A stretch of 28,151 nt of DNA, from the IMG/VR virus record IMGVR_UViG_2563366928_000002. One strand, written 5' to 3'. Shown here piece by piece: positions 3,165-21,663 of this stretch. A program made the position numbers and the translations under genes. The notes beneath the pieces were generated by a model, which did no database searches, was not told the origin of the DNA, and saw only the letters and a list, made by a program, of their open reading frames with translations. Origin of the DNA: a virus. Its lineage: Duplodnaviria > Heunggongvirae > Uroviricota > Caudoviricetes. The first letter of the stretch is position 1. Each line of letters opens with the position of its first letter.

Positions 3165-5386
3165 TAGATTGACTCCCCCATCTGAGCATCAGTCAATGCC
3201 TTGTGCCAAATACGCAGATTTCGAACGTGTCCAAATAGGTGACGGTTGCCGGATGATGATTGACCACCAATATTAATGAAGCCTCCTGTATATTTGTGTT
3301 TTTTATAAGGAGAAACTACCTTAGCACCAATATTACCGTTAACCACAACACACAATTCTCGACTTTCTGTGAATCTAAAGCCGATAATGCTTTTTCTCTC
3401 TGGTCGTTCTATAACGCTTTTATATTCTATTTTAGTGCCTTTACCATTTGTAATGATTGCGCGTGCTCCCAAAGATGTATACCCCAAATACATATAACTT
3501 TCATCTGCAATTTCAGTTGTATCTCCCGTAGTGGAAATATTAAGAATACGTGCGCTACCTTCTTTGTTTGGCGATTCATCCCAATTGGTATTAACTTCTG
3601 CTAATGAACTAATAGCGGGATTGCACCAATTTAGAGAAATGGGGACCGTTACAATATCGCTGGCGCGTGTTACAGGGGATGCGCCTGTTATAATAAACGA
3701 TGAAGCGCATGCCCCACCTTCAACTTGAGGGGTCGCAATATAAATATAATCATCCGCGCCAGTGCCCACTCCTTTTGCCGGGGCATACTGAACCATTCCA
3801 CCTATCATATTTTCTGTATCAAGTGCCTTAATTGTCGCCTCAAAAAAGATCCATTTGCTTGCTTCATCTTTAACAGCCCTTGCAGTAATGCGATTAGCGG
3901 CACCACCCGTCTTATCAATAGATAAATCTGTCGTATTTAAGTAAGCGTCACCTAAGAATGTGTAGGTAGAACCATCATAGTTTTCAAATCGTAATCGGCA
4001 TCTTAAATTTGGAGTGCCACTTTGCACCCTGCATGATATGGTTACATACTTTTCTCCGCCTGTTACATCAAAACCTTTACTGCCGGAAACGGTTACTATG
4101 TTAATCGCTGAAATTTGCCCTACCATTTCTGGTTTTAATGTAAATTTTGCGTACTGGAATCCGAAATCATCTACACCTGATGCACTTAAGATCATATTTG
4201 ACGACTTGTTCCATTTAGTCGGATTTGTTGAATTGATTAGCAGGTTAGTTCTTTGCCCCTCAATAAGCAGGCCATCACGTTTAAATCGTGGCTCGTCAAT
4301 GGCAGCCTCTGTCAGCACACCAGATTTATTAATGTAAGTTGCTTTCGATGCGCGTTTAAACTTTACAATCTTGTCGCCAGGCATTGTTATTTCATCGTCG
4401 CCAATAACAATTTTTTTATATGATGGCGAAAAGCCCGTAATCATATCCAGTGAATCATTAAACGGTATCCACACATCGGGCAACGGCTGCAAAACTTGTT
4501 TATACGGCTCCGCTGCCTGGCTTGCATACTCTCTGGCTGCGTCTTCACTTGCTTTAGCTGCTGTCTGGCTTGCTGCCGATGCTTGCGCCGAGTTCGCCGC
4601 CGCAGTCTCGCTCGCCTTTGCGTTGGTTTCACTGGTTTTTGCTGCTTTTTGACTGTTAGCTGATGCAGTGGCAGAAGCAGCCGCCGCGCTTGCAGAACTG
4701 GCTGCGGCACTCTCGCTTTGGGCCGCTGCATCCTGACTGCTTTTCGCCGCAGTTTCACTGGCTTTGGCATTCGTTTCGCTGGTCTTCGCTGCCGTCTGGC
4801 TGGACTTTGCGTTGGTTTCGCTTGTCGTTGCGGCTGTCTCGCTATTTTTCGCGTTGGTTTCTGATTTTTTAGCTGCTGTTGCGGAGTTTGCCGATGCAGT
4901 CTGCGAGGCCGCTGCCGCCTGTGCGCTGTTAGCTGCATTCGTTTCTGAGGTTTTCGCCGCGTTCTTCGATGATGCCGCTGCAGTTTCGGATTTCTTTGCC
5001 GCCGCTGCGCTCTGAGAGGCGGCTTCAGCGTTGCGTGCCGCTTCTTCCACCATTTCCTCAAAACGACGCAATGCCTCCGGCATGACATCATCTTCCGTCA
5101 TGGCACCGAGAAAATCATTCAGCGTACCTGGTCTGGAACCTTCATAGACGGTAATGGTTCCGGCATGTGAAGGCGGAAAACCTTCAACCAGCAGGGTGAC
5201 GCTGTACTGGCTATACTCAACATCCATGCTGTAACGCCCGGCTTCATCCGGATTTTCAGAGGCCACCGTGTTGACCAGTACCGTGGTGCTGTTACGCTTT
5301 GCCTTCAGTTGAATAGTGCAGTTCTGTATTGGTTTTCCCGCACCATCTTTCAGCACACCTGAGATTTTTACTGCTGCCATATCCAC
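3164..5386 (-). CDS. stf: side tail fiber protein (lambda Stf-like N-terminus, divergent receptor-binding C-terminus)
   Basis: 740 aa; N-terminus MAAVKISGVLKDGAGKPIQNCTIQLKAKRNSTTV closely matches recalled lambda Stf; Ala/Ser-rich SETNAK-type repeats; C-terminus NLRIWHKALTDAQM looks like a lectin/LamG-type fold rather than the lambda Stf C-terminus. Confidence 0.85.
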   Translation of the reverse strand: MDMAAVKISGVLKDGAGKPIQNCTIQLKAKRNSTTVLVNTVASENPDEAGRYSMDVEYSQYSVTLLVEGFPPSHAGTITVYEGSRPGTLNDFLGAMTEDDVMPEALRRFEEMVEEAARNAEAASQSAAAAKKSETAAASSKNAAKTSETNAANSAQAAAASQTASANSATAAKKSETNAKNSETAATTSETNAKSSQTAAKTSETNAKASETAAKSSQDAAAQSESAAASSASAAAASATASANSQKAAKTSETNAKASETAAANSAQASAASQTAAKASEDAAREYASQAAEPYKQVLQPLPDVWIPFNDSLDMITGFSPSYKKIVIGDDEITMPGDKIVKFKRASKATYINKSGVLTEAAIDEPRFKRDGLLIEGQRTNLLINSTNPTKWNKSSNMILSASGVDDFGFQYAKFTLKPEMVGQISAINIVTVSGSKGFDVTGGEKYVTISCRVQSGTPNLRCRLRFENYDGSTYTFLGDAYLNTTDLSIDKTGGAANRITARAVKDEASKWIFFEATIKALDTENMIGGMVQYAPAKGVGTGADDYIYIATPQVEGGACASSFIITGASPVTRASDIVTVPISLNWCNPAISSLAEVNTNWDESPNKEGSARILNISTTGDTTEIADESYMYLGYTSLGARAIITNGKGTKIEYKSVIERPERKSIIGFRFTESRELCVVVNGNIGAKVVSPYKKHKYTGGFINIGGQSSSGNRHLFGHVRNLRIWHKALTDAQMGESI
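4540..5040. repeat. tandem degenerate ~36-nt coding repeats inside stf (Ala/Ser/Thr-rich fiber shaft)
   Basis: Reiterated GCTGC/TTTCGC/GGTTTC motifs encoding K(T/S)SETNAK(A/S)SETAA units; also generates spurious antisense ORFs. Confidence 0.7.
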
Positions 5387-6111: not shown

Positions 6112-6951
6112 TCAGCTGATACTGATGCCTGCGGTGGCTTTCTTCATCACCACAACCAGCAGATCGCTGATACTTGCTGTGGGATACCAGTCATTTACCA
6201 GCCATGCTGACACCGAAAACTCCAGCGTCATGTGACCGTGACCGGCAGGCATATCAATAACGCCACTGTAAATCAGCGTATTATCCAGCGCGGTACGGTT
6301 ATAAATTTCAGCACCGTTTTTCCGCACTATCAGACGGCATGAGGAGTAAATATCAGTATGCTCTCTCTCATGTTTAGCGCCGCTGAATGCCACCGCCGGA
6401 ATAACAATCTGCCGGTCAAACGGCTGATCGTCATAAACCCTGACGGTAATGGTCCCTGATGGCCACCGTTCCGGTGCACGGGAGTCCCGGGGGAAAGCTT
6501 TGCCCACTGTTTTAACGAGATCGCCTTCAATCTGGTTCGCGGACAGTTTTCCCAGAACCCGACAGTTCTCGTTAATCGTGACGTTGTTGAGCGTCCCGGA
6601 GTTCGCATTCACGTTACCACTGATATCCGCATTTTTAGCAGTCAGCTTTCCGTCCGGTGTCAGGGAAAATGCCGGTGGATTTCCACCACTGGTAATGGTG
6701 GGGGCCGTCAGGCGCTTCAGGAACACGTCGTTCATGAATATCTGGTTGCCCTGCGCCACAAACATCGGCGTTTCATTCCCGTTTGCCGGGTCAATAAACG
6801 CGATACGATTGGCGGCAACCAGAAACTGACTCAGTTTGCCTTCCTCTGTATCCTCCATGCTGAGGCCAATACCCGCGACATAATGTTTGCCGTCTTTGGT
6901 CTGCTCAATTTTGACAGCCCACATGGCATTCCATTTATCGTTGGCATCCTT
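6112..6951 (-). pseudogene. J: C-terminal remnant of tail tip/host specificity protein J, 5'-truncated by the IS3-family insertion
   Basis: [108 protein letters not shown] matches recalled lambda J C-terminus; the track ORF start (6963) lies inside the IS terminal repeat. Confidence 0.8.
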
Positions 6952-6959
6952 TGTAGTGG

Positions 6960-9862
<2,903 letters not shown>

Positions 9863-9881
<19 letters not shown>

Positions 9882-10285
9882 TTTCCCGCAGAAACAGGCT
9901 CTGCAGGCCCGGCGTCATCTGCCTGTTCAGGGGCATTATTCACCACAAACTCAGACATTCCGGACAGACGTAACACCACGTTTTCAGCCTGAGCAATTGC
10001 CTCCGTGGGCCAGGTGGTAAGCACTTCCTGCTCAATCTGCGTAATGGCTTCATTCATGGACGGCAGCTTTGTCTTCTGCGGATGGTTATGCCACAGAGAC
10101 ATCGCCACCAGAAACGCCCCGCCTCTGATAAGATCCTCTACAGACACCTGCAGGTTGCCGCTGGATTCAGCCTTTTTTTCCTGCTCTTTCAACCAGGCAA
10201 GATGCTCAATACGCTGCAGGGCTGACAGTTCAGAAAGCGTGACGGTCACGCCGTTATGTTCAAATGATTCTGTTTTCAGGAACAT
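9863..10285 (-). CDS. G: tail assembly chaperone G
   Basis: 140 aa; MFLKTESFEHNGVTVTLSELSALQRIEHLA... and C-terminus AGPAEPVSAGKCSTVS match recalled lambda gpG. Confidence 0.9.
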
Positions 10286-10300
10286 CGCTGACTCTCCGGA

Positions 10301-11041
10301 TTAACTGGCGGTGACGGTGATTTCTGCAACCGCAGCAAACTCACCATTACCGGATACAACCGGAATGTTGACCTTGCCTGCAGCAACGCCGTTCACGGTG
10401 ATGGTCATACCACTGACCGACACGGTGGCTTTTGTTTTATCCGCTGACACCGCACGGAAGCTCTTGTCGGTTGCGCCTTCCGGCTGGAAGGCCACGGTCA
10501 GCGTGGTGCTCTGCCCTTTCACTACGGAAGCACTGGCTGGCGTTACCGTCATGCCGGTGGCCGCTGTTACCGTGCTGCGATCTTCTGCCATCGACGGGCG
10601 TCCCACATTGGTGACCTTCACCGTGCGGGTGATCACTTCCTTCGCCGTCACCGCTTTACCGATACTGCTGACCCAGCCACGGAACACATCGACCGTGCCG
10701 TTCGGGAAGCGGATTTTATAGGCACGGGTATCACCTTCATTAAACCACGCCAGCAGCGCCTGCTGCCCCTGCTCTCCGGGCATCCACGCCAGCGTGAAGC
10801 TGGTATCTCCGGCTGATTTCTGCCCCTGCCCGGTCGCAGTCCAGTCCGCATCCTCATCATCGAGATAACTGTCGTCATAGGACTCAGCGGTCAGTTCGCC
10901 GGGCGTCAGGTCTTTAACTTTTGCCAGACGCGACCAGTCAACGTCTGAAAGCAGGTTCGCATAAGGGTCACCGTTCCCCTTATAAACCCACAGTGTGGTC
11001 CCGGCACCTTTCACCGGTATTGCTGGATTTGGTACAGGCAT
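10301..11041 (-). CDS. V: major tail tube protein V (with C-terminal Ig-like domain)
   Basis: Matches recalled lambda gpV from MPVPNP... (246 aa); the track ORF extends 10 codons upstream to 11071. Confidence 0.9.
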
Positions 11042-11048
11042 ATCGTCC

Positions 11049-11444
11049 TCACATTTCATAGGTAATGACATAAGTCAGATCGGCTGAACTCCACAGGCCC
11101 GCATCATCGTCGCGCCGGTAGTCATAGCCACTGGCCACCATACTGGTGATCAAATCTGACAGTGCCGGGATATCGCTCATCACCGGATAAATCCGGGACT
11201 CCATCCACGAATCCAGCTCTGAATCCGGCACCTGAGCAGGCAGGAAAACTTCAATATGCAGCTCCGCCTGCCAGGTATCGCTGTCCAGCTCTTCGCCCGT
11301 GTATTCAGCGCCGGTGAGATAAACGGCAATTGCCGGAAAATCTTCCTCATCAAAAACAGCGGGGCGACCATCAAAAAGCGTCGCCCCGGTGTCATGCTTC
11401 TCCAGTGCATCCAGTACGGCTGCACGGAGTTCAGTATGTTTCAT
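11049..11444 (-). CDS. U: tail terminator protein U
   Basis: 131 aa, same length and position as lambda gpU. Confidence 0.85.
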
Positions 11445-12020
11445 CGCTTTATTACCATTCTCAGTTGATGCTGCAGCGCATAGCCCAGCTCTTTCGGAAG
11501 ACGCTCACGCCGTATCCGTTCAATATTCTGTTTAAACGCCGTGGTCAGTGGCACCGCCATCGGGATTTTCACCACATCAATGGGGTAACGGTTTTTCCCG
11601 GCCACACGCTGCATGACATGCCACCGGCCATTTTTCAGTTGCTGAATAAACGCGCCGGGAATACGACGGTTTCCCACCACAAGCACGCTGCCGCCACCTT
11701 TCAGGGATGAACGCTGCCCCTTTTTACGACGCCTGCGTCGGGACAGGACAACCCGCGCATTACCCAGCTTGATTACGGGCAAATCCCCCCCGGTTAACCT
11801 TGATTCTGGCCTGCGGATTTTTAACCGTGGCCCTTTTCAGCCTGGCCCTTTCCTTTACCAGTTTCCGGCGTACCTTTGTCTCACGGGCAACCTGTGACGC
11901 AGACTGCGATATCGCGGATGAAGCAACGCGGTTAATGGCCATTGCGGCGGCACCAGGCACCGCCGTTTTGCTGATACGGCTGAGGTTTTCAACGGCCTGC
12001 TCAAGACCTTTTATGGCCAT
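11441..12020 (-). pseudogene. Z: tail completion protein Z, frameshifted (+1 base in a C7/G7 homopolymer at 11785..11791)
   Basis: Track ORFs 11760..12020 (86 aa, MAIKGLEQAVENL...) and 11441..11782 (113 aa) together cover lambda gpZ (192 aa); junction reads AACCGGGGGGGATTTGCC where lambda as recalled has six G. Confidence 0.75.
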
Positions 12021-12031
12021 ACATCCCCCTT

Positions 12032-12385
12032 TCAGCGGCGACGGTTAACGGCAGGCGGTACGCCCCGCCCAAGCCAGAGATGACAGCTTCCGCCATCATC
12101 CGGCGAAACACGATCTATCCAGAAGTTTTCCTCACCGATGGTCAGCGTGTCTCCACGCCGCAGCTGCCGCACATCATCAGTCCGGACAAACAGGGACGGG
12201 CTGGAGCCTTCAACGCGCACGCCCTGTCCGGCATAGCTGATATTTTCAGGGTCATCAAAAACACCACGTATCACAGCACCGGACTGCTCACCGGATGTCA
12301 TGGTGGCTGACGTTCCCATGTACCCGCGTATCGTTTCATCGGCGCAGGCAATGGCAGCATCGAACAGGTTATCGAAATCAGCCAC
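12032..12385 (-). CDS. FII: head-tail joining protein FII
   Basis: 117 aa, same length and position as lambda gpFII. Confidence 0.85.
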   Translation of the reverse strand: MADFDNLFDAAIACADETIRGYMGTSATMTSGEQSGAVIRGVFDDPENISYAGQGVRVEGSSPSLFVRTDDVRQLRRGDTLTIGEENFWIDRVSPDDGGSCHLWLGRGVPPAVNRRR

Positions 12386-12833: not shown

Positions 12834-13859
12834 TTACGCCAGTTGTACGGACACGAACTCATCAGGGTCAGCCAGCAGCATCAGCGGTGCTGACTGAATC
12901 ATGGTGAACTCACGTGCCGGATCGCCGGTGGTCACCCAGTTTTTCGGGTAACGGGCAGAGGCGTTAATGCCTTCGCGCTGTGCGTCCGCATCCTGAATAC
13001 AACCATAGGTGCGCAGACCGCGTGCCTGAGTGTTCCCCAGCACCATCGTGTTGTCCGGCAGGAAGTTCTTTTTGACGCCGTTTTCCACGTACTGTCCGGA
13101 ATACACGACGATGGCAACATCGCCATACATACCCTTATAGGACACCGCTTTACCCAGGTCTTTTACCGCTGTCTCCAGCTCGGAATGAGAGCCACGACGG
13201 GTATCCAGCTTCTCCCTGACGGCTTTGAAGGAACGGAACAGCGCCCAGCCTTTCGGATCAAACACGATGATATTCACCACACCGCTGGCGTTCAGCGCGT
13301 AGGCTTCGATATCGTCGGTCGGGTCATACGTGGACTTGTCACGCTTGCTCCACTCCGTGCCGCCGGACTGCGTGATGTTATTCGCCGCACTGCGGCCCAT
13401 ATCCACCTCAACCGGATCGAAGGCTTCACCGGTCATGGTGTATTTGCCCTTAAGCACGGCAGAAACGGCCTGCATCTCTTCGACCTGAGCAATGGCCAGC
13501 TCTTCGTCACGCATGTTCTGCATGATGATGCGACGGCGGCGGTAAGCCGGGTCCGCCAGATTCTGCGGATCTTCATCCGGCAGGCGACGCAGGGTCATCT
13601 GCGGATTCACCTCATGCTTCGGCTTGACATATCCCGGCGTAAATTCAGAGGTGGAGCCGCCACGGGAACGGATAACCTCACCGGAAACAATCGGCGAAAC
13701 GTACAGCGCCATGTTTACCAGTCCCGGAATTTGTGAGAGATAGACTTTCTCCGTGGTGAAGGGATAGCTCTCACGGAAAAAGAGACGCAGAAACAGCGGA
13801 TCAAACTTAAATTTCTGCTCATTTGCCGCCAGCAGCTGGGCGGTTGTGTACATCGACAT
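12834..13859 (-). CDS. E: major capsid protein E
   Basis: MSMYTTAQLLAANEQKFKFDPLFLRLFFRESYPF... near-identical to recalled lambda gpE (341 aa); track ORF extends upstream to 13886. Confidence 0.95.
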   Translation of the reverse strand: MSMYTTAQLLAANEQKFKFDPLFLRLFFRESYPFTTEKVYLSQIPGLVNMALYVSPIVSGEVIRSRGGSTSEFTPGYVKPKHEVNPQMTLRRLPDEDPQNLADPAYRRRRIIMQNMRDEELAIAQVEEMQAVSAVLKGKYTMTGEAFDPVEVDMGRSAANNITQSGGTEWSKRDKSTYDPTDDIEAYALNASGVVNIIVFDPKGWALFRSFKAVREKLDTRRGSHSELETAVKDLGKAVSYKGMYGDVAIVVYSGQYVENGVKKNFLPDNTMVLGNTQARGLRTYGCIQDADAQREGINASARYPKNWVTTGDPAREFTMIQSAPLMLLADPDEFVSVQLA

Positions 13860-13914
13860 AAAAAAATCCCGTAAAAAAAGCCGCACAGGCGGCCTTTAGT
13901 GATGAAGGGTCAGG

Positions 13915-21581: not shown

Positions 21582-21663
21582 TGCTGGTTCAGAGTTAAAA
21601 AAACTATGATTTTTTTCATGATGTTACCGTAGTATGTGAGTATCCATCGAATAGACACCAAGC

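Follow-up and report, generated by a model that had tools for sequence, protein, structure and literature searches.

A probable slippage insertion in the G6 run of tail gene Z in a Qin-like Escherichia coli prophage that lacks most of its tail genes

Gene Content of the Prophage Remnant

The complete 28,151-base stretch of DNA that was analyzed (the window) carries on its minus strand the genes E, FI, FII, Z, U, and V in the same order as in lambda (Table 1), and the succession FII-Z-U-V agrees with the gene names assigned by PGAP to the identical sequence of strain AF14. Intact copies of all head genes, i.e., Nu1 (nohA), A, W, B, C, D, E, FI, and FII, are present, which bears out what an earlier reading made from the sequence alone (the sequence-only reading) had stated for the capsid genes, and U, V, G, and T are likewise intact. 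Following T, the genes H, M, L, K, I, and most of J have been replaced by an IS3-family element that is itself interrupted by IS30, and because these genes are missing no tail assembly is possible. The remaining C-terminal part of J is followed by lom and the side tail fibre genes. The broken Z gene described below is, as had been proposed, a second defect of tail/joining function, beside this IS-mediated loss of H to most of J.

A truncated copy of the chromosomal gene ydfJ adjoins the prophage, which moreover carries ydfU, Q (ydfT), cspB/F/I, essD, rrrQ, and rzpQ; all of these, together with ydfK, pinQ, and nohA, are shared with the Qin-type prophage. The prophage is the remnant of a Qin-like lambdoid element located beside ydfJ of E. 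coli. It differs in keeping a complete lambda-like head module as well as U, V, G, T, and the disrupted Z, all of which we take to be absent from the K-12 copy of Qin. A capsid-forming satellite (cf-PICI-like) was considered since the head genes are intact and tail genes are missing, and it was ruled out on the basis of the Qin-type flanks, the retention of U, V, G, and T, and the nature of the tail loss, where an IS scar is followed by a remnant of J.

Table 1. Positions in the window of the Z locus, its neighbors, and the tail deletion.
Feature	Position	Strand	Remarks
E	12834-13886	-	Head gene, intact
FII	12032-12385	-	Head-tail joining protein, intact; upstream neighbor of Z
Z	11441-12020	-	Tail completion protein, pseudogene; 580 bp versus 579 bp normally
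Upstream Z ORF	11760-12020	-	86 aa; native residues 1-78 plus 8 out-of-frame residues (GFARNQAG), TAA stop
Downstream Z remainder	11441-11782	-	+1 frame; native residues 80-192, 113 codons, first codon TTG
G7 homopolymer (C7 on plus strand)	11785-11791	-	Frameshift site; one base more than in lambda and the functional relatives examined (G6)
U	11049-11444	-	Tail terminator, intact; downstream neighbor of Z
V	10301-11071	-	ORF, intact
GGGAAAG heptamer	9881-9887	-	At the G/T overlap, intact; 1.9 kb from the Z run, same operon
IS scar	6960-9396	.	IS3-family element interrupted by IS30, after T; replaces H, M, L, K, I, and most of J
IS3-family left fragment	about 9094-9396		Part of the scar
IS30	7868-9088		Part of the scar; transposase with internal stop
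IS3-family right fragment	6960-7865		Part of the scar
J remnant	6112-6951		C-terminal part, last 840 bp

The Split Reading Frame of Z

The plus strand reads caaatCCCCCCCggttaacc at positions 11780-11799, in which the seven C residues, corresponding to G7 on the coding strand, lie exactly at the positions given in Table 1. No other G/C homopolymer in the window reaches seven bases, and three G/C runs of six are present; longer mononucleotide runs are more prone to insertions and deletions. The uninterrupted ORF of about 192 codons that characterizes a functional Z is not found at this locus, where the frame is split into one ORF that ends in KVNRG-GFARNQAG and a second, overlapping one that runs from LPVIKLGNARV to MVIKR, and the native Z stop overlaps the start codon of U (ATGA). 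The Pfam profile PF06763 (Minor_tail_Z; gathering cut-off of 23.9 bits) matched the upstream ORF with its positions 1-77 (99.7 bits) and the downstream ORF with its positions 79-190 (161.9 bits), and the protein obtained after removal of one G scored 274.6 bits. Because these two parts of the profile fall in separate ORFs, the break is a clean one-base frameshift within a single gene. The corrected protein has 192 residues and is identical to lambda gpZ, residue for residue.

Two claims of the sequence-only reading were confirmed by these analyses. The identification of the gene as a homologue of lambda Z is borne out by the PF06763 match, the FII-Z-U-V order, and the identity of the corrected protein to gpZ; the splitting of its frame into two overlapping ORFs by one extra base is borne out by the ORFs themselves, the two halves of the Pfam match, and the alignments to G6 sequences reported below. 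Judged by its sequence, Z can be assigned to the PF06763 family as a pseudogene only. The lesion is ordinary pseudogenization, which had already been flagged by RefSeq/PGAP in identical sequences.

The Run in Lambda and Other Phages

Lambda Z (gpZ; UniProt P03731; PF06763) occupies the same place between FII and U, and its DNA is about 97% identical to that of the window. The lambda sequence (NC_001416) reads ...GTTAACCGGGGGGATTTGCC... at this site, with G6 at lambda positions 8206-8211 (positions 707-712 of locus L007). The sequence-only reading had given lambda a run of six G residues, and the nucleotide alignment proved this right; a run of seven was not seen in lambda. Whereas lambda, with G6, encodes the full gpZ, the pseudogene of the window, with G7, encodes a product that is cut at 86 residues. 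Among 50,697 phage records searched, the 30 phage matches listed span 900 bases versus 901 bases of the query (898 for a match of 899 query bases), the exceptions being two records that contain a separate 43-bp duplication. The one-base difference at the run was confirmed by every G6 sequence aligned, and G6 is in frame at this site in lambda, in IdasGreatGrand, and in the intact prophage copies checked.

According to a published study (PMC11099176), gpZ joins the tail after the terminator gpU, and phage particles without gpZ have a normal appearance and are mostly non-infectious, with the DNA end misplaced at the head-tail interface. Another report (PMC10721106) states that gpZ is found in virions, yet that it was not resolved in the structure of the lambda tail. 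The passages of the gpZ literature that were consulted, which gave its function and mutant phenotype, contained no mention of an indel hotspot at the Z run.

The Prophage and Its Z Allele in Related Strains

Over 20,261 bp, the window matches scaffold KE136710.1 (GCA_000407865.1) with 100% identity. The same prophage, with G7, is present in the RefSeq complete genomes of AF14 (NZ_OZ546925) and AF10 (NZ_OZ546911), two UK blood-culture isolates in which it differs from the window over approximately 28 kb by four SNPs and one indel of a 189-bp repeat unit, with zero other gaps, and in which PGAP labels Z as 'phage tail protein, frameshifted'. The drafts UFZP01000004 and UGAB01000002 likewise have G7 on the window haplotype, together with the same IS scar. 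Comparison with the same prophage in related strains, which the sequence-only reading had named as a check on the frameshift, thus found G7 to recur in KE136710.1, AF14, AF10, UFZP, and UGAB, and in these assemblies no gap occurs at the run relative to the window.

An intact Z with G6 is carried by the same prophage in MSB1_4I (NZ_LR898874), at 99.7-99.9% identity. Its alignment to the window continues unbroken through the T/IS3 junction as well as the IS3/J' junction, and since this G6 carrier has both scar junctions, carriers of G6 and of G7 have the scar in common. In MSB1_4I, AF3, and SCU-172 (loci L004, L005, and L006), the 5' part of Z contains a 43-bp tandem duplication, a K4Q substitution, and one synonymous SNP. 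The duplication (approximately 755-840 in these loci, corresponding to approximately 11990-12040 in the window) covers the ribosome-binding site and the first eight codons of Z; the first copy has an out-of-frame ATG, and the intact Z, with K4Q, begins in the second copy. It is absent from the window, as it is from lambda, and is present in phage PhiR49_1 (hits H9 and H10).

Recurrent Length Changes at the Run

In a public protein collection, the exact 86-residue product was found on at least 61 contigs that represent at least four Z DNA haplotypes. The product expected from G5 was found on 122 contigs, that expected from G8 on two, and the intact, lambda-identical protein on at least 1000; length changes in both directions are present in the public data. 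A haplotype other than that of the window (haplotypes B and A, respectively) is exemplified by Z1002 (G7; locus L028) and Ecol_745 (G6; locus L027), in which the extra G is the sole difference over 18,093 bp. This alignment starts at ynfO, includes Nu1, and reaches J, all of its other head and tail genes are intact, and Z of Z1002 is labelled 'frameshifted' by PGAP. The exact G7 allele of haplotype B was found in 18 complete RefSeq genomes that were obtained by several laboratories and originate from humans, cattle, pork, and dogs, and the lineage includes O102:H6 strains. Haplotypes A and B are about 2.2% apart over 12.6 kb, and their G7 alleles are separate events because of this distance; a single G7 origin spread by descent was rejected on the same ground, as each haplotype moreover has a far closer G6 relative. 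With a 93-bp query, which counts only carriers with identical flanks and gives lower bounds instead of frequencies, G7 was found in at least two complete genomes for haplotype A and at least 18 for haplotype B, and one G5 haplotype in at least one.

At six of the eight long-contig G5 loci (L019, L021, L022, L024, L025, and L026), fragmentation extends to the genes for terminase, portal, protease, or tape measure, and many of the G5 calls are probably deletion errors of unpolished long-read assemblies. The higher count of G5 compared with G7 (122 versus 61 contigs) was not taken at face value, since these six loci lie in fragmented assemblies. The G6 run of Z is a recurrent indel hotspot, the length of which has changed independently in at least two lineages. 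With the prophage pseudogenes that PGAP labels 'frameshifted' as a class, Z shares clonal inheritance and a one-base difference in length at its longest G/C run; nothing essential sets it apart from this class, the only addition being the recurrent length change in at least two lineages.

Origin of the Frameshift and Alternative Explanations

The explanation that is favored with high confidence is a slippage insertion in Z of an already tail-less Qin-like prophage, i.e., a neutral and clonally inherited step of decay. Replication slippage most likely added one G:C pair to the six of the run, and the reading frame consequently shifts after Gly78, to continue for eight aberrant residues up to a stop and yield a truncated gpZ. 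By that time the IS3/IS30 scar would already have eliminated H to most of J, i.e., the tape-measure and tip genes. Because gpZ acts late, after gpU, and the prophage cannot build tails, the loss of Z would add no effect here, and it may be regarded as a presumably neutral event that was passed on clonally.

It is highly improbable that the seventh G is a homopolymer miscall in sequencing or assembly and that the true run is G6. Homopolymers are classic error sites, the assembly of one G7 carrier (UGAB, locus L014) contains many broken genes, and pervasive gene fragmentation is a feature of the assemblies that hold six of the eight G5 loci examined. An artefact, however, would be irreproducible and have other single-base gaps alongside, whereas at least five assemblies, derived from different isolates and projects, share G7 on one haplotype, and the three cleanest of them (KE136710.1, AF14, and AF10) are without other single-base gaps. 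In addition, the homologous prophage of AF3, which belongs to the same project as AF10 and AF14, was called G6, nine of the ten G7 loci have otherwise intact genes, and the independent G7 allele of haplotype B is identical in its 18 complete genomes from many laboratories. Whether the extra base reflects error or slippage had been left open by the sequence-only reading; its presence in at least five assemblies and in a second lineage favors a real, inherited mutation, and the frameshift is very unlikely to be a miscall.

There is likewise only a very slight chance that full-length gpZ is still made from G7, either because tRNA-Gly shifts by +1 on G GGG GGA or because one G is lost in transcription, which would render the allele leaky; the broader proposal that the run is a switch or leaky recoding site for losing and regaining tail completion, with G7 yielding some wild-type gpZ by +1 slip or reversion, is just as hard to credit. 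The re-pairing geometry for such a shift would be perfect and the product would be exactly the wild-type ...NRG-DLPV..., the next zero-frame codon after the run being GGA, a less-used glycine codon; furthermore, G7 of haplotype B lies in an 18-kb head and tail module without any other lesion and has been kept in 18 genomes. Such clonal persistence, however, is also what neutral inheritance predicts, and in the window, where tail genes are deleted, selection for Z expression is not expected. Moreover, G6 is in frame in every phage and intact relative aligned or checked, the lengths of the listed phage matches agree with this, and because the functional relatives examined have G6, G7 is no conserved recoding signal; a conserved arrangement that requires a shift, as in programmed frameshifting, was not found among these relatives. 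By inspection, neither an in-frame stop nor a suitably spaced stimulator of the prfB type was seen at the run. The GGGAAAG heptamer of the same operon (Table 1), at which lambda is known to undergo the programmed -1 frameshift between G and T, serves as a contrast: it likewise involves a frameshift in a tail gene and is conserved and required in functional phages, whereas G7 of Z is absent from all functional relatives examined, which marks it as a mutation instead of a signal. Finally, a phase-variable tract finds no support, since the length of the run is constant within each clone: no variation was found within the five haplotype A assemblies or the 18 haplotype B genomes, all of which have G7.

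Order of the Tail Deletion and the Frameshift

With respect to timing, the sequences suggest that the tail deletion most likely came first and that the Z frameshift arose later, in a narrow sub-clade. In the reversed order, which is rather unlikely, the frameshift in Z would have preceded the tail deletion, and relatives of the MSB1_4I type would owe their G6 to gene conversion by a co-resident lambdoid prophage. In its favor, the duplication, K4Q, and SNP distinguish the 5' part of Z in MSB1_4I, AF3, and SCU-172 from that of the window, this segment could have been imported since PhiR49_1 has the same duplication, and the genomes of these three strains hold at least two copies of Z. Furthermore, the G7 allele of haplotype B is the sole lesion in an otherwise intact module, from which it follows that Z can be hit first. 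Against it, a single event of duplication or collapse explains both the duplication and K4Q, so that only the indel and one SNP remain, and the G7 carriers of the window haplotype are near-identical, whereas the scar-bearing G6 carriers are more diverse (99.1-99.8%). This low diversity of the G7 carriers fits a recent, derived G7 allele that is nested in the scar-bearing group, as the order with the deletion first would have it.

Implications for Prophage Annotation

The G7 call in Z can be trusted and needs no correction in polishing. The prophage cannot make tails for two independent reasons, and any particles would need tails from a co-resident lambdoid phage. The G6 run at lambda positions 8206-8211 is a recurrent indel site in E. 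coli prophages that can mislead callers of prophage intactness, and G5 calls at this run are a useful warning of unpolished long-read assemblies. The Z case alone would be textbook prophage decay by homopolymer slippage, to which the recurrence at the run makes a small addition.

Additional Variation in the Prophage

Several further differences were observed between the window and its close relatives. The gene ynfN (minus strand; start codon at 21619-21617) has a run of seven A residues at plus-strand positions 21597-21603, compared with eight in MSB1_4I; the resulting frameshift truncates the gene after 14 codons, and PGAP labels it 'frameshifted' in both AF14 and AF10. This homopolymer indel fits the same process of decay as that proposed for Z.

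Within the scar, IS30 (1,221 bp) is inverted in place relative to MSB1_4I, and the alignments of the element overlap by 26 bp at each end, corresponding to the terminal inverted repeats. The element may have re-inserted at the same hotspot or recombined between its inverted repeats, or the orientation may be a choice made during assembly. A change at position 8726 splits the IS30 transposase of the window, which PGAP annotates with 'internal stop'.

The side tail fibre gene is repetitive at positions 4598-4846, where AF14 and AF10 carry one extra 189-bp unit, and its repeat copy number differs among near-identical prophages; the gene is annotated as incomplete in AF14 and as intact in AF10. 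The start of the window (positions 1-3) lies about three bases inside the position at which an IS1 copy starts in AF14 and AF10, and a second IS1 copy (positions 28387-29084 of locus L002) bounds the other end of the prophage in these two strains, upstream of ydfU. The prophage remnant may thus be bracketed by IS1 copies.
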